DNA from: Eledone cirrhosa
Lineage: Eukaryota
Length of the DNA: 64,000 bases
Direction: 5' to 3'
Assembly (NCBI GenBank): GCA_964016885.1
Contig: OZ024745.1
Span: 97,278,001-97,342,000, forward strand
The notes below the pieces were generated by a model. That model did no database searches. It was not told where the DNA came from and was given only the letters and a program-made list of their open reading frames with translations. Both the position numbers and the translations under genes were made by a program. This document shows positions 6,917 to 61,615 of the stretch, piece by piece. The first letter of the stretch is position 1. Each line of letters opens with the position of its first letter.

Positions 6917-6987
6917 TATTTTATTATGCGCATTTCAAAAACAAATATCATCATGCAATAACATTTGCGTTTTCGTCAGATAAAATA
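6917..6987 (-). ncRNA. Type I hammerhead ribozyme (family A, antisense copy)
   Basis: Reverse complement of 7117-7187. Confidence 0.8.
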
Positions 6988-11640: not shown

Positions 11641-12013
11641 TAATCTGAGTTTTTCGAATATTAATAATAATATTCGATTCGTTTGGAATTATGCAAACAA
11701 GCCTCATTTTAAAGCCACGTCAGAAGAATGAGCCCCTCATTCTTGCTCTTGTGTTGGCATGTAAACAGAACTGGAGACACTAATGTTTCTGGGTATCACT
11801 CTTCATCAGTACAGGTCACTGTTCACCTGTACAGTGAAGTGTAATGATGAAGGATAATACCCAGAAACATTAGTGTCGCCAGTTCTGTTCACATGCCAAT
11901 GCAAGGGCAAGAATGAGGGGCTCATTCTCCTGACGTGGCTTTAAAAATGAGGCTTGTTTGCATAATTGCAAACGAATCGAATATTATTATTAATATTCGA
12001 AAAACTCAGATTA
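11641..12013. mobile_element. ORF-less palindromic cassette (inverted pLTR-like repeat) with degenerate hammerheads near the centre
   Basis: Imperfect inverted arms of about 170 bp ending in (TA)n. The same family recurs at about 49180-49535. Confidence 0.8.
11768..11817 (-). ncRNA. Degenerate type I hammerhead ribozyme (family B)
   Basis: Minus strand reads GACCTGTA-CTGATGA-AGAGTGATACCCA-GAA-ACATTAGTGT-C-TCCAGTTC, with stem I 6/8 paired and stem II decayed. The + arm copy (11844-11877) has the core ATGATGA. Confidence 0.55.
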
Positions 12014-12633: not shown

Positions 12634-12957
12634 TATTAATAAGAGGAATTCCAACTTTGTCTGATTTACTCGTTTTATTTACAATCCTTTAAAATATATA
12701 TAATATGGTATTATAATGAAATAGTATGATAGAATATTAAATTCTAAGTGTTAATTGAACAAGTACTTTCATGCTTTCGCAATCTTCAGGTTCATGATGT
12801 GTGGTGACAGTCGAGTTTGCAATTTTCACAGTTGAAATTAACACTTAGAATTTAATATTCTATCATACTATTTCATTATAATACCATATTATATATATTT
12901 TAAAGGATTGTAAATAAAACGAGTAAATCAGACAAAGTTGGAATTCCTCTTATTAAT
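12634..12957. mobile_element. ORF-less palindromic cassette with a hammerhead in the loop
   Basis: Essentially perfect inverted arms of about 120 bp (12634-12756 and 12836-12957) around an 80-bp spacer, followed by (TA)n. Confidence 0.88.
12756..12794 (-). ncRNA. Minimal type I hammerhead ribozyme (family C)
   Basis: Minus strand reads TGAAC-CTGAAGA-T-TGC-GAAA-GCA-T-GAA-AGTACT-T-GTTCA: 5-bp stem I, GNRA-capped stem II, palindromic helix III. Confidence 0.88.
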
Positions 12958-12982
12958 ACATATATATATATATGTGTGTGTG

Positions 12983-13019
<37 letters not shown>

Positions 13020-13478
13020 TATGAAGAGAGAAGAAACATTTAGATATAATTAGTAATAAAATGTATCATACCTAAACTGTTCCTAAATTCCTCGACTACG
13101 TAGTTTCGTGGCATAAACAAAAACAATATATCAAAGATATAGAGTCCTTGCGAGGTCTGCCGACACATGTATATATGTGTGCGTCCGCATGTATCTGTGT
13201 GTTTCTAAATATATTAATAACTCCCTCTGGTCGAGCAATCTTTGAGGTGTGGGGACAACTGGAAAGCTTCCATTACTCATACTTCTCGCCTTCTTCACTA
13301 CCTCTTCTACGGCCTCGATATGAATACCCCCTCCGCCTCCGTGGTATTTTCTTCGTGGTTATAAGAGGCTTAGCTCTGTTTCTCGACCGTTATATCGCGT
13401 GACTATCTCCCCCTCCGCCTTTTTGGGATTCTTTCTCACGTCGTGTAGACGCGTTCTTGAGACTAGTAAAATGAGGTA

Positions 13479-13566
13479 TCCTCTTGATAAGTCGGCAGAC
13501 CTCGCAAGGACTCTATATCTTTGATATATTGTTTTTGTTTATGCCACGAAACTACGTAGTCGAGGA
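13479..13566 (+). ncRNA. Type I hammerhead ribozyme with U3-A8 variant core (family D, copy 1)
   Basis: Stem I TCCTC/GAGGA; core TTGATAA; stem II base GT(C)GGCA/TGCCAC with a long extension; GAA; palindromic ACTACGTAGT; cleavage after C13561. Confidence 0.78.
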
Positions 13567-14068
13567 ATTTAGGAACAGTTTAGGTATGATACATTTTATT
13601 ACTAATTATATCTAAATGTTTCTTCTCTCTTCATAATGTATTTTTAACTCTGATACTGGTTCAGTCTAGTTCAAACTGAATTGGTCTGTCCCAGTCATTC
13701 ATTGAGCAACATCGGTGAAGTTGGCACCCTTAACTCACAGTTGGGTGCGGATGCGTTCATGTATATATGTGTGCGTCCGCATGTATCTGTGTGTTTCTAA
13801 ATATATTAATAACTCCCTCTGGTCGAGCAATCTTTGAGGTGTGGGGACAACTGGAAAGCTTCCATTACTCATACTTCTCGCCTTCTTCACTACCTCTTCT
13901 ACGGCCTCGATATGAATACCCCTCCGCCTCCGTGGTATTTTCTTCGTGGTTATAAGAGGCTTAGCTCTGTTTCTCGACCGTTATATCGCGTGACTATCTC
14001 CCCCTCCGCCTTTTGGGATTCTTTCTCACGTCGTGTAGACGCGTTCTTGAGACTAGTAAAATGAGGTA

Positions 14069-14156
14069 TCCTCTTGATAAGTCGGCAGACCTCGCAAGGA
14101 CTCTATATCTTTGATATATTGTTTTTGTTTATGCCACGAAACTACGTAGTCGAGGA
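14069..14156 (+). ncRNA. Type I hammerhead ribozyme with U3-A8 variant core (family D, copy 2)
   Basis: Same sequence as 13479-13566, offset by 590 bp; cleavage after C14151. Confidence 0.78.
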
Positions 14157-14400
14157 ATTTAGGAACAGTTTAGGTATGATACATTTTATTACTAATTATA
14201 TCTAAATGTTTCTTCTCTCTTCATAATGTATTTTTAACTCTGATACTGGTTCAGTCTAGTTCAAACTGAATTGGTCTGTCCCAGTCATTCATTGGGCAAC
14301 ATCGGTGAAGTTGGCACCCTTAACTCACAGTTGGGTGCGGATGCGTTCATGTATATATGTGTGCGTCCGCATGTATCTGTGTGTTTCTAAATATATATAT

Positions 14401-14556
<156 letters not shown>

Positions 14557-14689
14557 GTGTGTGTGTGTGTATATATATATATATGTATTTAGTGGTAGAA
14601 CACTGGAAGGTAATATCCGTAGTGGTAGAGCACTCAGCCCATGGGACGAGTTAGGTAGGAGTGGTTACACAACAGTTAGTTCACCATAC

Positions 14690-14727
14690 CGAGAACAATT
14701 GTTTCACCTTAGCGGATCCTCAGCTCG
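14690..14727 (-). ncRNA. Minimal type I hammerhead (family E) in the inverted pLTR
   Basis: Minus strand reads CGAG-CTGAGGA-T-CC-GCTAA-GG-T-GAA-ACAATTGT-T-CTCG. Confidence 0.8.
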
Positions 14728-15088
14728 TAATGGACATGGTTATACGGAACAGGAAGGATAACCGTACGAACGCGCATGCGCAGAAACGATCACTTCACAC
14801 AGTCAATACTAACATGCGTGCGAGAGGTGTAAGGGAGATAACTGCGAAAGTCCGAAAAATTTCTAGTTGATAAGAAAATTAGGATGTCGTAATTCAAACC
14901 GGAGCTTTGTAGTTAAGTAAGAGGTGTTTCCAGACGTGTGGACAACGTGTGAAGAATTCATTTCTCGTGTTTAGGCAATCACTATTGCGTAATCTCTTTT
15001 AAATATTTATTCGTTCATCAATACATAGTCCAACGACGGAGTAGCCTGGGCAAAGAAGTCAACAACTTCAGACCTATTCGACGTCTCC

Positions 15089-16264
15089 ATGGAATCGTTT
15101 GATAGTGCTGACGTATGCGACTTGGTTAGCTTATTTATTTCAGACATATTACGTGTTAGATTCCCGGACTTCCACACGGGAATATACCGCGACGATGGAC
15201 TGACCTTATCGAGCCATAAAAGTGGTCACGACCTCGACCGGTTTAAAAAAGACTTAGCTTCTACCTTCAATGAGTTAGGACTTGGGATAACAGTAGCTAC
15301 CAACCTCTCTAGCGTAGATTTCTTATACATTAATTTTAACCTTCGCACACACACCTACAGACCCTTCCATAAGCTAAACGAAAAACTCAATTACATTCAC
15401 AAGGACTCATGCCACCCTCCCACTGTTTTTAGAAACTTCGTAAATAATATCAGTACTAGAATCTCAAACCTCTCCTCTAATAAGGCTATCTTTGACAGGG
15501 CGGCACTCTACTATAACACGGCGTTAGCTAACAGCGGCTTCTCGCAACCTATCACTTACACTCCCATTATCAACAACAGCAATAAGAAAAGAAAGCGTAG
15601 CAATAGACAAACTATCTGGTTCTCTCCTCCCTTCTCACTCATCGTTAAAACCAATGTAGGCAAAAAATTTCTAGCCCTCTTAGATAGACACTTTCCCATA
15701 GGTCATAAATACTGCTCCATCTTTAACCGACACAAAGTAAAACTAGGATACTCCTGCGCTAAGAACATGAAGGCCCACATCACCAACAGCCCTAAGAGCA
15801 ACACCCCACCAGGGTGGTCTTGCCGTAAGCCCGAAGCTTGTCCCCTTCAACAGCAATGCAACACACCCGCTGTAGTTTATGAAGCTGTGGTCACTTCCAA
15901 CCGACCAAATCAACCACAGGAGGTCATATCCTATGTGGGTATGGCGGAGGGCCGATTTAAGGAATGCTTCTTGAACCACCAGTCGACATTTAGGTACCCG
16001 GACAGGCGTTCATCCACGAATCTCGCGAGCCACGTATGGTCCCTCAAGGACTCGAGTATAGACTACTCCATTCAATGGAAAGCCATCACTAAGTCCAAGC
16101 CATACGCAAGGGGCAATCTGTCGTGTGGACTATGTATTGATGAACGAATAAATATTCTAAAGAGATTACGCAATAGTAATTGCCTAAATACGAGAAATGA
16201 ATTCTTCACACGTTGTCCACACGTCTGGAAACACTTCTTACATAACTACAAAGCTCCGGATTGA
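15089..16264 (+). CDS. Penelope/Naiad-type RT C-terminal half, Cys-rich linker and GIY-YIG endonuclease (5'-truncated, open frame)
   Basis: FDVSMESFDSADVCDLV, GIYRDDGL (RT catalytic), SCHPP, IWFSPPFS, C.R...CPL...C, VVYEA...SYVG, C.LCIDE, CLNTRNE...CPH. Confidence 0.92.
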   Translation: MESFDSADVCDLVSLFISDILRVRFPDFHTGIYRDDGLTLSSHKSGHDLDRFKKDLASTFNELGLGITVATNLSSVDFLYINFNLRTHTYRPFHKLNEKLNYIHKDSCHPPTVFRNFVNNISTRISNLSSNKAIFDRAALYYNTALANSGFSQPITYTPIINNSNKKRKRSNRQTIWFSPPFSLIVKTNVGKKFLALLDRHFPIGHKYCSIFNRHKVKLGYSCAKNMKAHITNSPKSNTPPGWSCRKPEACPLQQQCNTPAVVYEAVVTSNRPNQPQEVISYVGMAEGRFKECFLNHQSTFRYPDRRSSTNLASHVWSLKDSSIDYSIQWKAITKSKPYARGNLSCGLCIDERINILKRLRNSNCLNTRNEFFTRCPHVWKHFLHNYKAPD

Positions 16265-16433
16265 ATTACAACAACATCCTAATTTTCTTATCAACTAGAA
16301 ACTTTTCGGACTTTCGCACTTATCTCCCTTACACCTCTCGCGCGCATTTTAGTATTGCCTGTGTGAAGTGATCGTTTCTGCGCATGCGCGTTCGTATGGT
16401 TGTCCTTCCTGTTCCGTATAACCATGTCCATTA

Positions 16434-16471
16434 CGAGCTGAGGATGCGCTAAGGTGAAACAATTGTTCTCG
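16434..16471 (+). ncRNA. Minimal type I hammerhead (family E) in the 3' pLTR
   Basis: CGAG-CTGAGGA-TGCGCTAAGGT-GAA-ACAATTGT-T-CTCG; stem II is weakened by one substitution. Confidence 0.75.
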
Positions 16472-16631
16472 GTATGGTGAACTAACTGTTGTGTAACCAC
16501 TTCTATATATATGTATATATATAAATGCTTTAATAAATTCTTCCATGTATTGTCGTTTATTTTGTTACTTCTGTTTACCTTTTATATACATATATACACG
16601 CGGGAGGCGTTTTTGTGTGTTCTCTTTTATG

Positions 16632-25402: not shown

Positions 25403-27446
25403 TAAATAACAGATTAAAGTTTAAGCAAAGAATCGCTGCTTTCACCCTTAACGGGATCTTCTGAAACTAACAAAGTCAATCTGTAAACGCAGAACTGGAT
25501 ATTTCAAAAAACGTTGCAACCGGAGGAAGACAGGAAGACGATACTTTGGTTCGTGGTAACGTTCGCTGGCAAAGAACGGGAAAAAAACGAATAATACGTC
25601 ATTAATAGGAGCGGTGAAAAACAATTACGCGCAAAGACAGAACCACGTTTATGGTATAAAAGAGGTCGTAGACTAATGTTCTCTTAGGTGGAGCATAGAG
25701 ACGTTCTCTGGCAATGAACGAAAAAACGAAGATAATAAGTCATATGCTGAGCGTGGAGAACAATAGCACGCAAAGACAAAACCACGTAAATGGTATAGCA
25801 GAAGTCGTAGACTAAAATTCTAACTAGGAGACCAAATGAATCTCTGCTACAGAGTTAAGAACAAAGTAAATAAATACAATACAGAAGTAATAGAAATAAA
25901 TAAATACATACACGCAAACAAGTACGTACATACACAAGCATACGCAAAACCTTACCATAGGTATACAAAACCACGCACATATAAATGTGTGTGTGTGTGT
26001 GTGTGTATATGCTTGTGTACAAATAAATAAATAATTATATAAACGTATATAAGTAAATAAATACGTATATAACAAGCGCACACACATACCTACATATAAA
26101 TACACGAATGTTCGGAGACGTAAGTCAACTAAAACAAGAAGTACACATATACACACACCCACCATACGTACGAACCTGCATACTCACGCAGACGCAAAAC
26201 TCCCGTATACACATAGCCAAACCCTAAATACCAGAATATAAAAATGATACGCCATAACAATCAAATATACGTACGAGAAGGTATACATACCTTCACAAAA
26301 CATACGGGTAATATATACTTACCTATGCAGATAAGTAAAGGAATAAACAAAACATATACTTAGCTCCCACATCAAGACGTAAAATATCCACGTATAGATC
26401 GTACTATCCGTTAGGGTATAACGTGGGGCTGTAATACAGGAAAGTTTTGTGCAATTTATGTTTACAAGCCGAAATTGCCTCAGATTTTTTGTTTAAGATG
26501 TGGTCTGTGGCGTAGAGTATTTCCAAGGCCTCAGCGGCGCAGAGGTCACATGGTCTTTTATTTCCGTTATACGATCTAGCCCTAGCTAGGATCTCCCAGT
26601 GTAACTTATATTGGGTGTGGTTGTCTTTTAGACTCCAGATATAAGCTGAAAGTGACGTCATATTCCTTCTTAAAGGGTAACGAAAAGAATGGGTATGCAT
26701 GTAAAGACGCTGCTTGAAACTATTGGCGGTTAACCCTTACATTTGTAGACAACGTTACTAGAGAGGCATTTCCCGGATAGGGGGCAATCAGCCCGATTCC
26801 TATAATTACAATTAGTACTAACTACAGGGTTGCACGTGTTCCTACGGCTAGGTAGTTTAGCTAAATTTGAAGCTGTGATGTTATGTGCAAGGTTAGGAGT
26901 CGTAGAGTAAGAAATTTTAATAGTATTTCTATTAAAAATGTTACTATATTTATGTGTAGGGGGAAAATGCTTCGAAATAAGGGAAAGAAAGATCTTAGCT
27001 AATGGTGTGGCCACCTCCATATTATATGGTGGGTTAAACCAACAAATGCGACGGGATCTATTTCTTCTAGGTCTATTTTCGTACTCTGTATATGCTACCT
27101 TATCGACAAATCCACTTCGAGCAAGAGTTTCATTGTAATAAGTGGAATGGTCGTTGAAAATGCGCTCGTTGGTGGAAAGACGGAAAGCCTCAACGAAACG
27201 TTTCTTACCAGGTTCTTGGTTATGCTGGCAGGATGGTTGGAATGCTTACTTATGTAATTAAGCGTATCATTCGGCTTTCTATACGGGTAATACAAAGAAG
27301 ATCCCGTTAAGGGTGAAAGCAGCGATTCTTTGCTTAAACTTTAATCTGTTATTTAATAAATATTTGCTCTACGGTTCTTATATATTTGATATATATTTAT
27401 CCTTATCGAGCCCTCTTTGGATTTTAGTCTTCAATTTTATTATTAT

Positions 27447-27590: not shown

Positions 27591-28279
27591 TATATATATC
27601 AAAATGAAAATCTGAAGACAAGGTAAAATTCCAATCATTTTAATCACGACACATGTTTCAATAAGAGAGAGAGAGAGATATCGTAAAGCCATGATCATTT
27701 ATCACTGAACACATCAGGTGAAAATGAATTGTCTTCAAATTCTTGATATGAGGGAGAAAATTATCAATGTTCACTCACAGAGTTTATTCCCTCATATGAA
27801 GATCCAGTAGTCAGAAATACGGCGACTGCTATCAGCTTCAGTTAGGGTCATAAAACTCTCAAATATCCATAGCTGCAAAGGACGCTGGACATTAATCTGA
27901 TCTGTAGAAATACAGTCGGTCACAGTAATTGTGAGTGGGTACACATACACTCAACACCCATACACACCGGCTCGAGGTCAAAGAAAAAAAAATATATATA
28001 TATATATAATCACATATCAACACAGCATCAAACCTGTAGAACTATAGAAGGTCACAATTAGTCTGAGTGGGTACACACACACACTCACACACACACCGAA
28101 GCGATGTCATAGAAAAAAACAACAAATATAAGAATAAGAATATACCAACACAGCATTCACCGAAAGTTCGTTTACAAAACAACAAATGCTACATTGGTCA
28201 AATCTCAATTTGACGATGTAAATTGGAAATATTGGGTTAACCACAGCCCCATACACATACACACACACACACAAACAAG

Positions 28280-29937
28280 TAAGTTCTATAATAATAGTAT
28301 GGTAGAGAGGGTGAGGAAAAAACTAAGCAAATTCTTCAAGAACATAGACCTAAGTATAGTATTTGAAGAGAACTTAAAGATAGTTAATTTTCTAGATGTC
28401 ACACTTCATCTCAATTCAGGACTCTTCCAACCCTACCAAAAACCCAACGAGAATCTGAACTATGTCAACGCAAAATCGAACCACCCTAGAATAGTCACTA
28501 ACGGTATTACCAAAAGCATCTCTAGTAGAATTTCAGGACTATGAAGATACCTTTAATAAGATCTCGAATTACTATAATAGCGCCCTGGAACGCGCGGAGC
28601 ATAGCGAGGGAATCTCATTCAAACGTCCATTAAATAGTAGTAGCAACACTGCCTGCGATAGATTAGGCCAAAATAGTGACACTTTAGTTAACAGCAGGCG
28701 TGGTACAAGGGAGGATTTATATAGACTTCATGTTGTATTGCCTCCTAGTCCCAATGTTGATGGTACCAATGGAAACAACCATCCAGGTACTAACACGGAG
28801 TTTGAGCACCGTAACGCCAACAGAAACTCTAATTGTAACCTTAATGGTAAAACAACCGTTGAACGTAATATGGAACGAGGGTCGAGTAAAGGGAATAGGG
28901 ATAGGTGTAGCAGACGCATAGTGGATTTAATCCCGGCTATCGAGGGTAATCCCAATGGATGCACGGGGACTTGGGACGATTCAGAACACAATCGTGACAC
29001 CCCAGGACACCATCGACCCACAGGCAATTTCCAGTTATAATAGACCAGTAGCTACTAAGGAGACAGGTATCACTAATATAGTTAGTAAGAACAAGAGGCA
29101 TCGGACCAGAAAAATCCTGTTGTACAACAACCCCCCCCCCCCCCCTTATTCCACTGGCCTGACCACTAGTATAGCTAAGCTTTTCTTTAGGGCCTTAGAC
29201 AAATGCTTCCCTAGATCACACAGATACTATAAAATATTCAATATGAATACCATCAAGCTGTCCTACTCCACAACTAGTAACATAGCGCAGAATATAGCTA
29301 AAATGAATTATAGTAGACTTAGGACAGCCCAAGGGGGAATTAGACATGGCAGTAATAATGGCAGCTCTATGGAGGAACGGACTCATACATGTGAGGCGAG
29401 TCGGGTCTCTCCAACCCCAGGGAACTTACCCATAGAGCAAACAGGAATTGAGACCCGACCCCAAAGGTACCGTGGTTCATCTGGAACTACCCAGGTTGAT
29501 AACAAAAAATGTAACTGCAGGAGCACCGCCTCCTGCCCCATGGCTGGGAAATGCCTCACCAAAAACATAGTCTACGACTGTAAGGTCTCCACTCCTGATA
29601 GAACCTTCAGGTATGTTGGGGCAACTGCCACTGAATTTAAGGATAGATGGTATAATCACCGCCATACCTTTAATATATTAGATTTAAAAAAAATAGCACG
29701 GCGCTTTCTGAATTAGTCTGGAAGCTTAAACATCAGAATATGGAGCACTCCTTATCCTGGTCCATAATTTGCTCAGCCCAACCTTATAACGGCAGCACTG
29801 GCGTTTGCAATTTATATGTAGCTGAAACCTTTAATATTATTAGAGGCGGGCCCCTATTAATTAATAGGAGAGCAGATTTTTTCAGCAATTGCCAACATAG
29901 AAGCTCGAAAACCTTCCGCAGCATTTTTGGAAAGTAA
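28280..29937 (+). pseudogene. Frameshifted Penelope RT/GIY-YIG ORF with long low-complexity insertions
   Basis: VNFLDVTLHLNSGLFQPYQKPN...SNHP, KIFNMNTIKLSYS, KCNCRSTASCPMAGKCL..IVYDC..YVG..FKDRWYNH, INRR...CQH. Confidence 0.88.
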
Positions 29938-36445: not shown

Positions 36446-36541
36446 CATATGAATATATGTCAGTTAAAGATGGAGCGGTATTAATACCGCTCCATCTTTA
36501 ACCGACACAAAGTTAAACTAGGATACTCCTGCACTAAGAAC

Positions 36542-37039
36542 ATGAAGGCCCACATCACCAGCAGTCCTAGGAGCAACACCCCACCAGGGTGCTCTTGCCG
36601 TAAGCCTGAAGGTTGCCCCCTTCAACAACAATGCAACACACCAGCTGTAATCTATGAAGCTGTGATCACTTCCAACCGACCAAACGAACCACAGGAGGTC
36701 AAATCCTATGTGGGCATGGCGGAGGGCCGATTCAAGGAGCGTTTCCTGAACCACCAGTCAACCTTCAGATACCCGGACAGACGTTCATCCACGAAACTCG
36801 CGAGCCACGTATGGTCCCTCAAGGACTCAAATATAGGCTACTCCATTCAATGGAAAGCCATCACTAAGTCCAAGCCATACGCAAGGGGAAATCCGACATG
36901 TGGCTTATGTATTGACGAACGAATAACTATCCTAAAGAGATTACGCAATAGTGATTGCCTAAATACGAGAAGTGAATTTTTCACACGTTGTCCACACCTC
37001 ACCAAACATCTATTGCATAACTACAAGGCTCCGGACTGA
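36542..37039 (+). CDS. Penelope linker plus GIY-YIG endonuclease fragment (open frame)
   Basis: CSCRKPEGCPLQQQC, VIYEA...SYVGMAEGRFKERFLNH, CGLCIDE, CLNTRSE..CPH. Confidence 0.88.
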   Translation: MKAHITSSPRSNTPPGCSCRKPEGCPLQQQCNTPAVIYEAVITSNRPNEPQEVKSYVGMAEGRFKERFLNHQSTFRYPDRRSSTKLASHVWSLKDSNIGYSIQWKAITKSKPYARGNPTCGLCIDERITILKRLRNSDCLNTRSEFFTRCPHLTKHLLHNYKAPD

Positions 37040-37221
37040 TTCTTTGTAATTTTATTTTTAATTTTTTTATTTTATTTTCAACCTAACAACTTTCCGGACT
37101 GTCGCAGTTATCTCCCTTACACCTCCCGCACGCACTGCAGTATTGCCTGTGTGAATTGACCGAGTTTCTGCGCATGCGCGTTCGTACAGTTGTCCTTCCT
37201 GTTCCTATAACCATACACATC

Positions 37222-37261
37222 CCGAGCTGAAGATCCACGAAGGTGAAACAATTGTTCTCGG
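37222..37261 (+). ncRNA. Minimal type I hammerhead (family E)
   Basis: CCGAG-CTGAAGA-T-CC-ACGAA-GG-T-GAA-ACAATTGT-T-CTCGG. Confidence 0.82.
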
Positions 37262-37355
37262 TATGGTGAACTAACTGTTGTGTAACCACTTCTTCCTAAC
37301 TCGTCCCTTGGACTGAGTGCTCTACCACTACGGATATTACCTTCCAGTATTCCAC

Positions 37356-47231: not shown

Positions 47232-49167
47232 ATATATATATATAAAAGCGAGGATGTGTATGTGTCTGTGTACAACTTTGCATACCTAAGGCTTTTACAA
47301 TTACCAACCGAATTTGACCAAATTTTCTGTGCTCGTTGCGCAGGTCGCTAAGCTGGTCACACGTTGAGCAATAAAAGAATCGATATCAAAATTATCGGTA
47401 CCAAAATTGATGTAAGGGAGATAACCAACTTTATTGACAATCCTTATTAAAAAAAAAGGGAGATATCCAACTTTATTGACAATCCTTATAAAGAGAGACC
47501 TTCGTTTTCAATTTTAAAACAACAATCATCGTCGGACGAAATTTCAGAAATATAAACATCAGATTCATTTGAAGATAAATCACTAATATTATCGTTTGTT
47601 TCTTGTTTATTCTTTGTTGCACTTTCAAAGTTAAAATAACACTTGTTGTTTTAACTTGTTTCACTATATTAAGTGTTAATTTTCGCGTTAAGGGCCTAAT
47701 TTCGCAGCAGTCTCGAATTGACGAGATTTTGATGATGGTTTGTTTATCTTTGGAACAATCGTTATGGGACTTTCCATTCAAACCATTGGGACCTACAACT
47801 TTTACATTTTTAAAACTTTCATAAGCCACGTGGATACAAAAAAAAATTTGTTGCACTTTCAAAGTTAAAAAAACACTTGTTGTTTTAACTTGTTTCACTA
47901 TATTAAGTGTTAGTTTTCGCGGTAAGGGCCTAATCTCGCAGCAGTCTCGAATTGACGAGATTTTGATGATGGTTTGTTTATTTTTAAAACAATCCTTATG
48001 GGACTTTCCATTCAAACCACTGGGACCTACAGCTTTTACATTTTTAAAGTAATTTCATCCACATTTGAGGCAGGCATTGTCTATGCTTCCAGCTGTATTC
48101 GTACACATCAAACTTTTTGGACAATGAAGGAACATACTGAACAGGATTCTTCCTGGATGTCCACGGATATATAAATCTATTGATACTGTATGTGATCCAC
48201 AGGATGCGGTCAACTATCAAGTTGAATTTCTAAATTCTTTAAATCCTCCTAGTTTACCTCCTAATACATTGGTTCTGAAAGAGGGAACGCCAGTTATTTT
48301 GCTGAGAAATATCACTCCTCCAAAACTATGCAATGGTACACGCCTTGTGGTTAAAAAACTGTCTCCACTTAGTATTGACGCTACCATTCTATCCGGATGT
48401 GGAAAAGGCGAGGATGTGATAATAACAAAAATTAGCCTGACTACATCAGGCGTGGATACTCCATTCTCCTTTCGCCGAACCCAATTTCCCCTTCGTGTTG
48501 CCTTTGCGATGTCCATAAACAAGTCGCAAGGTCAAACTCTGTCCGTCACTGGAATTCACTTGGATGAACCTTGCTTTTTGCACGGACAATTCTACGTTGC
48601 CTGTTCACGAGTTGGCAGTCGAGATAATCTCTTTGCGTTTGTTCCGAAAAGAAAAACAAAGAATATCGTCTATCCTGAAGTGCTTTAGTGTTAACAAAAA
48701 ACTTATTACAGCTCTGCCTTGACTTCACCTTACTCATTACAAAACATACCAATGAATATGTCATGCAGGATATTTTGGATTATAAATTCAAAATTTAACC
48801 ATACACAGCAAAGGATGCTCTCAAAGAATAGATTTTCTCTTATTCTACTCTCATTGTTTTTTTTGTTTGTATACAACTCTGCTTTCATTACAATTTTTTG
48901 TACTTTAGCAAAACTGCCTGTTTTTTTTACAGATTTGCAACGTGTGTTGTCTTTAATCATTTGTATAACTACATCCTGTTCAGTGTTTTCCTTCATTATC
49001 AACATAGTTTTGTGTACAAAGATTGTACTAGTTATTCGTTTGCATTAATTATTGAAGACTTCTGCTTATTTTGACAGTTGGGGACAAATAATGTTCTTCT
49101 TTTACTTCCTAGCGGTATATTCTTAGCATAATTTCAAACCCTGAGCAACGCCGGGTAAATCTGCTAG
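47232..49167 (+). mobile_element. Internally deleted (non-autonomous) Helitron
   Basis: PIF1-family helicase C-terminus; 3' GC-rich hairpin ACCCTGAGCAACGCCGGGT followed by CTAG|T at 49164-49168; 5' end TATATAAAAGCGAGG merges into (TA)n; internal duplication of about 230 bp. Confidence 0.88.
48110..48688 (+). pseudogene. Helitron RepHel helicase C-terminal fragment (PIF1-like)
   Basis: EFLNSLNPPSLPPNTLVLKEGTPVILLRNI..PKLCNGTRL..RRTQFPLRVAFAMSINKSQGQTL..HGQFYVACSRV..TKNIVYPEVL. Confidence 0.92.
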
Positions 49168-58033: not shown

Positions 58034-59170
58034 TTGGTGTGTAACAAGTATGTAACATCTTTATTTAGATATTATTTGGTGTGTAACAAGAATGTAACAT
58101 CTTTATTTAGATATTATTTGGTGTGTAACAAGAATGTAACATCTTTATTTAGATATTATTTGGTGTGTAATAAGAATGTAATATTTTTATTTAGATATTA
58201 TTTGGTGTGTAATAAGAATGTAATATTTTTATTTAGATATTATTTGGTGTGTAATAAGAATGTAATATTTTTATTTAGATATTATTTGGTGTGTAATAAG
58301 AATGTAATATTTTTATTTAGATATTATTTGGTGTGTAATAAGTATGTAACATCTTTATTTAGATATTATTTGGTGTGTAACAAGAATGTAACATCTTTAT
58401 TTAGATATTATTTGGTGTGTAATAAGAATGTAATATTTTTATTTAGATATTATTTGGTGTGTAATAAGTATGTAACATTTTTATTTAAATATTATTTGGT
58501 GTGTAATAAGAATGTAACATCTTTATTTAGATATTATTTGGTGTGTAATAAGAATGTAATATTTTTATTTAGATATTATTTGGTGTGTAATAAGAATGTA
58601 ATATTTTTATTTAGATATTATTTGGTGTGTAATAAGAATGTAATATTTTTATTTAGATATTATTTGGTGTGTAATAAGTATGTAACATCTTTATTTAGAT
58701 ATTATTTGGTGTGTAACAAGAATGTAACATCTTTATTTAGATATTATTTGGTGTGTAATAAGAATGTAATATTTTTATTTAGATATTATTTGGTGTGTAA
58801 TAAGAATGTAATATTTTTATTTAGATATTATTTGGTGTGTAATAAGAATGTAATATTTTTATTTAGATATTATTTGGTGTGTAATAAGAATGTAACATCT
58901 TTATTTAGATATTATTTGGTGTGTAATAAGAATCTAATATTTTTATTTAGATATTATTTGGTGTGTAATAAGAATGTAATATTTTTATTTAGATATTATT
59001 TGGTGTGTAATAAGAATGTAATATTTTTATTTAGATATTATTTGGTGTGTAACAAGAATGTAATATTTTTATTTAGATATTATTTGGTGTGTAATAAGAA
59101 TCTAATATTTTTATTTAGATATTATTTGGTGTGTAATAAGAATGTAATATTTTTATTTAGATATTATTTG
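58034..59170. repeat. 42-bp minisatellite, about 27 copies
   Basis: Unit TTTGGTGTGTAATAAGAATGTAATATTTTTATTTAGATATTA, period 42, no spacers. Confidence 0.97.
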
Positions 59171-59472: not shown

Positions 59473-59810
59473 GAAGGCGGATGGCTTAATGGTTAGAGCG
59501 TTGGGCTTGCAATTGAGAGGTTCTGAGTTCGATTCTCAGAACGGGTGATGCGCTGTATCCTTGAGCGAAACACTTTATTTCACGTTGTTCCAGTTCACTC
59601 AGCTGTAGAAATGAGTTGTGACGTCACTGGTGCCAAGCTGTATCGGCCATTGCCTTTCTCCTGGACAACATCGGTGGTGTGGAGAGGGGAGACTGGTATA
59701 CATAAGCGACTATTGGCTTTCCTCAAACAAACCTTTTCCCAGGCTTGTGCTTCGGGAGGGACACTTCCTAGGTGCATAACCATGGTCATCCGTGACCCAG
59801 TGGGGCCTTC
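59473..59810 (+). mobile_element. Full-length tRNA-derived SINE
   Basis: A-box TGGCTTAATGG, B-box GAGTTCGATTC, central TCCTTGAGCGAAACACTT motif; homologous to 43523-43813. Confidence 0.88.
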
Positions 59811-60339: not shown

Positions 60340-61615
60340 CTGGTGTTATTAGAGAGTTATAGCTGAGGTAGACATCAATAACTGATACAGTTTTACTGAG
60401 ATTATTAGAGAGCTATACTAAAGTTAGTCATCAATAACTGATACAGTCTTACTGAGATTATTAGAGAGCTATACTAAAGTTAGTCATCAATAACTGATAC
60501 AGTTTTATTGAGGGTATTGGAGAGCTATACTAGAGATAGACATCAATAACCAATACAGTCTTACTGAGGGTATTGGAGAGCTATACTAGAGATAGACATC
60601 AATAACCAATACAGTCTTACTGAGGGTATTGGAGAGCTATACTAGAGATAGACATCAATAACCAATACAATCTTACTGAGGGTATTGGAGAGCTATACTA
60701 GAGATAGACATCAATAACCAATACAGTATTACTGAGGGTATTGGAGAGCTATACTAGAGATAGACATCAATAACCAATACAGTCTTACTGAGGGTATTGG
60801 AGAGCTATACTAGAGATAGACGTCAATAACCAATACAGTCTTACTGAGGGTATTGGAGAGCTATACTAGAGATAGACGTCAATAACCAATACAGTCTTAC
60901 TGAGGGTATTGGAGAGCTATACTAGAGATAGACATCAATAACCAATACAGTATTACTGAGGGTATTGGAGAGCTATACTAGAGATAGACATCAATAACCA
61001 ATACAGTCTTACTGAGGGTATTGGAGAGCTATACTAGAGATAGACATCAATAACCAATACAGTCTTACTGAGGGTATTGGAGAGCTATACTAGAGATAGA
61101 CATCAATAACCAATACAGTCTTACTGAGGGTATTGGAGAGCTATACTAGAGATAGACATCAATAACCAATACAGTCTTACTGAGGGTATTGGAGAGCTAT
61201 ACTAGAGATAGACATCAATAACCAATACAGTCTTACTGAGGGTATTGGAGAGCTATACTAGAGATAGGCATCAATAACTGATACAGTCTTACTGAGGATA
61301 TTGGAGAGCTATACTAGAGATATACATCAATAACTGATACAGTCTTACTGAGGTTATTGGAGAGCTATACTAAAGTTAGTCATCAATAACTGATACAGTC
61401 TTACTGAGGTTATTAAAGAGCTATACTAAAGTTAGTCATCAATAACTGATACAGTCATTCTGACGTTATTGGAGAGTTATACTAGAGCTAGTCATCAATA
61501 ACCAATACGGTTTTACTGAAGATATTAGAGAGTTACAGTGAATATAGTCATCAATAACTGATAAAGTCTTACTGAGGTTACTGGAGAGTTATAGTAGAGA
61601 GTCATGAATAACTGA
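60340..61615. repeat. 56-bp minisatellite, about 22 copies
   Basis: Unit ACTGAGGGTATTGGAGAGCTATACTAGAGATAGACATCAATAACCAATACAGTCTT; homogeneous centre, diverged edges. Confidence 0.97.

Follow-up and report, generated by a model that had tools for sequence, protein, structure and literature searches.

An abundant tandem repeat with a U3-A8 hammerhead motif in Eledone cirrhosa is likely a non-autonomous Penelope-like element

The 64,000-nucleotide stretch of the Eledone cirrhosa genome analysed here (contig OZ024745.1, positions 97,278,001 to 97,342,000; hereafter the window) includes a segment at 13479-13566 that resembles a hammerhead ribozyme with TTGATAA in place of the CTGATGA core. This raises the questions of whether the segment is a hammerhead motif, whether the joint change at positions 3 and 8 is compensatory and a sign of selection, as held in the original prediction, and what kind of element carries it.

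The letters of the window bear out the described anatomy, namely a TTGATAA core with intact stem I, GAA, 10-nt palindrome, GUC triplet and long stem II (Table 1), and the segment conforms to the type I hammerhead core YUGANRA / GAAA / UH with a Watson-Crick 3-8 pair. Formation of the 3-8 pair in the active state is known from the hammerhead structure (PMC3088659), and U3-A8 occurs naturally, its in vitro activity having been demonstrated earlier (PMC3088659, section 8). The view of U3-A8 as tolerated but uncommon therefore holds with respect to tolerance, but its rarity was overstated, as the hammerhead of the Penelope-like element (PLE) Cercyon of Schistosoma has U3-A8 and a U3-A8 descriptor gave ~1,300 matches there (PMC4209133). 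The motif matches twice in the window against a chance mean of 0.16, and at least two matches were seen in 0 of 100 shuffles. The original prediction covered neither the second copy and the inverted arm nor the element that hosts the motif, its predicted need for a dimer or the hairpin that competes with it. An Rfam search of the window at both thresholds gave no hammerhead match for either copy. The C3-G8 minimal hammerheads in the window, found by a simple descriptor, were likewise without an Rfam match, hence the miss of the U3-A8 motif is not due to the swap and carries little weight. The expectation that standard searches would overlook the family is thus correct for a CUGANGA pattern but does not explain the Rfam result. 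Judged by its letters, the segment at 13479-13566 is a real hammerhead-ribozyme motif with an uncommon, previously described U3-A8 core.

Table 1. Hammerhead copies, host repeat units and insertion boundaries (positions in the window).
Feature	Position	Strand	Detail
Type I hammerhead, copy 1	13479-13566	+	U3-A8 core, ~57-nt stem II domain, 10-nt palindromic helix III
Stem I of copy 1, 5' strand	13479-13483	+	TCCTC
Core of copy 1	13484-13490	+	TTGATAA (UUGAUAA); U3 = 13484, A8 = 13489
Stem II of copy 1	13491-13547	+	G10.1-C11.1, one bulged C, long interrupted extension
GAA of copy 1	13548-13550	+	
Palindrome (helix III)	13551-13560	+	ACTACGTAGT, 10 nt
C17 of copy 1	13561	+	GUC triplet; predicted cleavage 3' of C13561
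Stem I of copy 1, 3' strand	13562-13566	+	GAGGA
Predicted hairpin	13562-13631	+	-21.0 kcal/mol; begins at cleavage site, ends ~10 nt before 476 end
Hammerhead, copy 2	14069-14156	+	Identical to copy 1; natural partner in the predicted double-hammerhead fold
Repeat unit 1	13166-13757	+	~591 nt; longest stop-free frame 108 aa on +; no recognised PLE-protein ORF
Repeat unit 2	13758-14347	+	98-100% identical to unit 1
Partial third unit	14348-14396	+	Ends at fixed 3' end near unit position 50, then (TA)n
Inverted 5'-truncated arm	13009-13164	-	Unit positions ~326-476; without core, stops just before it
Tail (~166 nt) between the two fixed arm ends	13642-13806	+	Bounded by putative reverse-transcription start sites
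(TA)n target microsatellite, left	12956-13016		Flanks insertion
(TA)n target microsatellite, right	14391-14588		Flanks insertion

The whole genome (3.0 Gb, 1,796 contigs) was scanned for exact matches to the 21-nt core context of the hammerhead, and 6,045 were found against 0 in the reversed control, showing that the motif is not a chance occurrence. Positions 3 and 8 were U3-A8 in 6,031 of these matches, C3-A8 in 6, U3-G8 in 8 and C3-G8 in none, and in copies of older subfamilies, described below, U3-A8 was present in 70 of 71, with C3-A8 in the other one. When the seven core letters were left free, 5,839 matches were obtained, with TTGATAA in 99 of the first 100 listed. The family consensus thus has T and A at the two positions, as had been predicted, and is not CTGATGA. 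In four sequencing runs from one study, no variant reached 1% at 13489, and the sole C above 1% at 13484 was in one low-depth contig with several other changes. A census with a generic U3-A8 pattern (749 matches against 70 in the control) is unusable as a count because one non-ribozyme ORF segment dominates it. Three aimed genome pattern searches returned no C3-G8 sister of the ~591-nt family in which the motif lies, and hence a double change cannot be traced in this family; as the counts suggest, U3-A8 is simply its inherited state. The compensatory double change proposed for it was consequently not borne out, and the swap is seen directly only in a second family.

This second family (family 2) came from a looser search that revealed other U3-A8 hammerheads in the same genome, and its loci are L148 (G000:C1:200826000-200834000), L145-L158, L165 and L168-L197. 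Its tandem unit is non-coding and 319 nt long, with arms that are inverted in the manner of PLEs and end at ~219 and ~247, and no homology between it and the ~591-nt unit was detectable. There were 1,394 family 2 matches with U3, U3-A8 being present in 99 of the first 100 listed, and 113 with C3, the first 100 listed comprising 92 C3-G8 and 8 C3-A8. When aligned to the U3-A8 unit, C3-G8 copies are mostly 76-91% identical to it, and in an unrooted tree of 52 rows one branch splits C3-G8 from U3-A8 (100/97; bootstrap not fully settled). In family 2, as these alignments indicate, positions 3 and 8 truly covary, though by a single event, between sister subfamilies. The core switch coincides with a change between a 12-nt self-sufficient helix III, found in the C3-G8 subfamily, and the 10-nt palindrome of the U3-A8 ones. 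At least two further types of U3-A8 hammerhead occur in the genome (L087, L099/L160; L005, L039, L077, L098, L146, L161-L164), one with a 10-nt AT-rich palindrome and one with the core UUGAAAA and a 6-nt palindrome.

The insertion in the window consists of 2.1 tandem ~591-nt copies (13166-14396; unit GC 42%) and the inverted arm, between (TA)n tracts, and the arm terminates at the other fixed 3' end, unit position 476. In a survey of insertion ends at 68 loci, one per insertion, the 5' starts of arms were scattered and the 3' ends fell at unit position ~476 or ~50. A 476 end is paired with a ~50 end in 27 of the 33 two-armed insertions (two of the 27 being one segmental duplicate), one has two 476 ends, and five are broken or at a locus edge. 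The two fixed sites account for 101 of 126 distinct arm ends, and 86 of these 101 reach (TA)4 within 8 nt. Both arm ends finish in TA-like hexamers, which could pair with, or prime on, a nicked (TA)n target. Arrays include up to about five units in a row, reading through up to five cleavage sites.

The repeat therefore has the non-coding tandem units, at least two in a row and each with an intact type I hammerhead, that characterise a non-LTR retrozyme, and the 5'-truncated tandem and inverted arms, tail on one end and microsatellite target that characterise a non-autonomous PLE. The ~591-nt unit includes no ORF for RT and GIY-YIG as an autonomous PLE would, and in the family loci inspected no RT ORF adjoins the 5' ends of arms, which argues that the unit is non-autonomous. 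The same loci yielded neither an autonomous helper nor an autonomous PLE with a pLTR or 3' end homologous to the unit, and no tRNA or SINE head was found in the unit. The paired 476 and ~50 ends and the (TA)n flanks agree with the published PLE structure of tandem copies, inverted 5'-truncated arm, tail and TA bias (10.1101/2021.04.23.441226), and in another report the tail is defined by two internal RT starts (PMC11167929). The insertions carry the PLE signature, and from the sequence the ~591-nt repeat is likely a non-autonomous PLE / non-LTR retrozyme. Tail length varies widely, being ~166 nt in the ~591-nt family, ~28 nt in family 2 and ~70 nt in a neighbouring PLE.

Several candidate lines of evidence were discarded or kept as weak. 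In L160, a PLE ORF located 1 kb from a U3-A8 hammerhead was inserted separately and is not a partner, and its weak match to the ~591-nt unit is low-complexity TA/TG sequence. A genomic fossil of cleavage was not obtained, as only 2 of 102 5' ends lie at unit positions 396-398, with no pile-up at the site. The unit appeared as one closed ~590-nt contig loop in two runs of unspecified kind, and this was not taken as a circle since tandem DNA gives the same loop. Pairing of the two ends of the tail in one helix was predicted for 41 of 47 trimmed tails, but the idea is weak, as the helix is lost in longer context (expected pairs 0.01-0.1) and TA-like sites would pair in any case.

The window is dense in PLE-like elements. 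A 5'-truncated PLE at 14590-16503, with a 411-aa frame (15029-16264), an inverted arm and a ~70-nt tail, carries its own C3-G8 minimal hammerhead (16438 on +, 14723 on -), and a related copy lies at 36485-37300. Broken PLE-like RT/endonuclease frames are found at 26404-27245 (-) and 28113-29716 (+). Pfam returned no families for four PLE fragments of the window, which are assumed to be PLEs from motifs (RT 'YRDD', C-terminal GIY-YIG-like region) together with their architecture. More C3-G8 minimal hammerheads with palindromic helix III, at 6979 (-)/7125 (+), 12789 (-), and 24640 and 25139 (+), belong to small, inverted or tandem (499-nt spacing) elements without Rfam match. Near-perfect long inverted repeats by (TA)n at 11660-12010 and 12634-12958 are likely short head-to-head PLE insertions. 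Other features of the window are a partial tRNA match at 59482-59539 (Rfam RF00005, 32.6 bits), possibly a SINE head, and two minisatellites, at 58034-59170 (42 nt, 27 copies) and 60347-61600 (56 nt, 22 copies), the former yielding a 422-aa stop-free frame that is probably incidental. A 186-aa frame at 48128-48688 may, going by its motif, resemble the C-terminus of a Helitron/PIF1 helicase.

As inserted copies decay neutrally, lineages rather than copies were compared. An anchor located 40-60 nt upstream of the core and specific to older subfamilies had 332 genome matches, and 70 fetched loci gave 76 distinct anchored copies, of which 71 were kept and five were dropped as truncated (<72% identity over the ribozyme). 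The older copies are 74-84% (~80%) identical to the window unit. A column was scored as lineage-variable if a minor state was present in at least 5 copies or the old majority differed from the window. By this measure 5 of the 44 hammerhead columns (core, stem I, proximal stem II and helix III) are variable as compared with 47 of 112 in the flank (Fisher p=2.6e-4, although columns are not independent), and at a threshold of 8 copies the values are 3/44 and 45/112. Among the 13 unpaired columns of the catalytic core, none varies between lineages at threshold 8, and at threshold 5 one does, a CpG. A single stem I pair, 13482/13563, accounts for two of the variable ribozyme columns; it is U-A in 40 of 71 copies, C-G in 15, U·G in 14 and C·A in one, with one gap; this stem I swap probably reflects one or two inherited events.

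Pairing was assessed on an alignment of 67 rows (the window and 66 of the 71 older copies, after removal of three partial and two duplicate rows), in which 94.2% of cells are paired as compared with 35-55% in slid controls. In both-side changes the alignment surpasses every one of the 500 shuffles, yet just 2 of the 28 pairs carry such a change, which is not above shuffles (435/500 as high). Comparative support thus extends to the three helices of the hammerhead, with few independent events, and the long stem II extension is preserved mainly via A-U/G·U changes. The RNAalifold consensus is a register-shifted helix involving U3 and not the hammerhead, and conservation equal to that of the ribozyme is found elsewhere in the unit (bins at or above 0.9). 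On this comparative evidence, the ribozyme fold is under selection in the replicating lineages of the element. Of the earlier argument that the double change betrays selection, the selection on the fold is retained (5/44 against 47/112 variable columns), and the double change itself is not, as far as the ~591-nt family is concerned.

The predicted folds indicate that the motif needs a partner. For the 88-nt monomer a shifted fold (-21.8 kcal/mol) is favoured over the hammerhead (-20.7 kcal/mol), and for two strands the MFE structure is a double hammerhead with a shared 10-bp helix III (-57.3 kcal/mol against 2 x -21.8, or -43.6). Among 25 natural intact copies, the double hammerhead was predicted in 21 of the dimers and the hammerhead in none of the monomers. 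A palindromic helix III and, by prediction, a dimer-favoured fold make it a PLE-type minimal hammerhead, and PLE hammerheads are reported to be dimer-dependent in two sources (PMC4209133; PMC6765202). The hairpin at 13562-13631 takes up the 3' strand of stem I, with the hairpin core present in 69 of 70 copies and sequestration in 64 of 70. In natural context, helix III between copies is predicted with P 0.85-0.99 in four of five stretches and 0.18 in the longest, and stem I with P 0.003-0.095, except in the shortest stretch, which stops at 14160 just after the second ribozyme (P 0.62). At equilibrium, the conserved downstream hairpin is predicted to switch the hammerhead off. As the hairpin would capture the stem I strand, cleavage may be gated and incomplete, co-transcriptional or protein-assisted, and incomplete cleavage would be consistent with arms that read through up to five sites.

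The explanation regarded as reasonably probable is that the ~591-nt non-coding repeat is likely a non-autonomous PLE (non-LTR retrozyme) with predicted cleavage after C13561 only in paired tandem copies. It builds on the anatomy of the motif, its copy number, an architecture of tandem and inverted copies, a pair of fixed arm ends, flanking (TA)n and a fold conserved at the level of lineages, all of them observed. A tandem locus would be transcribed, and two hammerheads would form a common 10-bp helix III via their 10-nt palindromes, with nucleotide 8 positioned by a Watson-Crick U3-A8 pair in place of C3-G8. Cleavage would be gated, in that the hairpin would capture the 3' strand of stem I after ~70 more bases, and cutting would be co-transcriptional or protein-assisted, and incomplete. 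The unit-length RNA may then be ligated to a circle, or the RNA may stay multimeric. A PLE RT/GIY-YIG protein would nick (TA)n and prime cDNA from both target ends, starting at two sites within the RNA that lie 166 nt from each other; as many as about five units would be copied, and two 5'-truncated cDNAs would join head to head.

An alternative that shares the mobile element, and to which a minor though appreciable chance is given, is that the hammerhead fold is kept for protein binding or folding, with cleavage negligible or dispensable and arms copied from uncut multimers. This would suit a stem I that is predicted to be out-competed in natural context and arms that read through up to five sites with no pile-up at the cleavage site. 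It would also suit the anole PLE, the one tested in vitro, for which hammerhead mutants are reported to be without effect on insertion, so that cleavage is not needed (PMC11167929). However, purely catalytic, unpaired core columns would not be expected to be invariant between lineages (0/13 at threshold 8) if cleavage were dispensable, and positions 3 and 8 of family 2 switch together, as expected of an active-state pair.

The two remaining alternatives concern the element itself. It is improbable that the repeat consists of pseudo-LTR fragments derived from an autonomous PLE with unsampled full-length copies and does not replicate on its own, even though the architecture is that of a PLE, PLE ORF fragments are present in some flanks and only ~150 of several thousand loci were read. 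Unit position 1 follows on position 592 of a further unit, in series of up to about five, the closed unit persists in subfamilies that are 74-84% identical to the window copy, and no ORF fragment adjoins the 5' end of an arm. A DNA-level satellite, produced by unequal crossover or rolling-circle DNA and with a relic hammerhead, would account for head-to-tail tandem units that are 98-100% alike, but not for arrays that are short and dispersed, with 5' ends that vary, 3' ends fixed at two sites and a junction of inverted copies, or for pair-preserving change on the RNA strand; this reading is largely refuted already by the fixed-end architecture and is considered very improbable.

A more far-reaching elaboration of the non-autonomous PLE reading is put forward as speculation that is unlikely to hold in full. 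The repeat would be a retrozyme caught in the course of PLE-type insertion, with a 590-nt circular RNA, a self-gated, dimer-only U3-A8 hammerhead, a borrowed PLE enzyme and two starts 166 nt apart, and U3-A8 would have been taken up by several unrelated non-autonomous families, mostly with a 10-nt palindrome, as a selected down-tuning of cleavage so that multimers survive.

Given that the U3-A8 core swap was already known, what is added here comes from the insertion ends, which give direct genomic evidence that PLE machinery likely moved a tandem repeat of the retrozyme type, and the long tail and predicted off-switch hairpin are also of note. The ~591-nt family is a young, very abundant and near-identical substrate with defined ends for testing the role of the hammerhead in PLE transposition, and family 2 offers a natural C3-G8/U3-A8 sister pair for measuring the effect of the swap. 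In the literature searched, no earlier description of the ~591-nt family was found.

Among known systems, the hammerhead of Schistosoma mansoni Cercyon (PMC4209133) is similar in being type I with U3-A8, G10.1-C11.1, a 5-bp stem I, an enlarged stem II, a palindromic helix III and a dimer-dependent fold. Unlike Cercyon and PLE hammerheads (PMC4209133), the motif studied here has a ~45-nt interrupted stem II extension and a 10-nt palindrome, and its bulge follows the second stem II pair, whereas in those hammerheads it precedes stem II. It also lies in tandem non-coding units, whereas PLE minimal hammerheads are mostly single motifs (PMC4209133).

With metazoan non-LTR retrozymes (PMC7229834; 10.64898/2026.07.22.740005) the repeat shares short non-coding tandem units with one type I hammerhead each, a GC content below 45%, coexistence with PLEs, and a high degree of self-pairing if circular. 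Such self-pairing is expected of retrozyme circles (PMC7229834), and the unit folded as a circle had a predicted stability of z=-6.0 against 40 shuffles. The unit length of 590 nt exceeds the range of 170-400 nt in one source (PMC7229834) and falls inside that of 51-972 bp in the other (10.64898/2026.07.22.740005), a 2026 preprint in which cleavage failed in 8 of the 9 dimers of Xenopus retrozymes. Unlike those retrozymes, the repeat has a U3-A8 core and a ribozyme predicted to be blocked by a neighbouring hairpin. In the preprint the link between retrozymes and PLEs came from co-occurrence and pLTR homology, with the mechanism called open, whereas here it comes from insertion architecture and not from pLTR homology.

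In non-autonomous Chlamys PLEs such as MRC1 (10.1101/2021.04.23.441226), copies likewise run head to tail, an inverted arm is 5'-truncated, one end bears a tail and microsatellites are the targets. They differ in a usual tail of 30-40 bp, as compared with ~166 nt, and the hammerhead is present here; unlike the Chlamys non-autonomous PLEs, the ~591-nt unit had no 3' homology to an autonomous family in the loci inspected. As in the Poseidon PLE of Anolis (PMC11167929), two fixed internal ends bound the tail, the targets are AT-rich and the hammerhead folds poorly when alone, whereas Poseidon is autonomous, has a C3-G8 core and uses adjacent start sites that are not homologous to the target.
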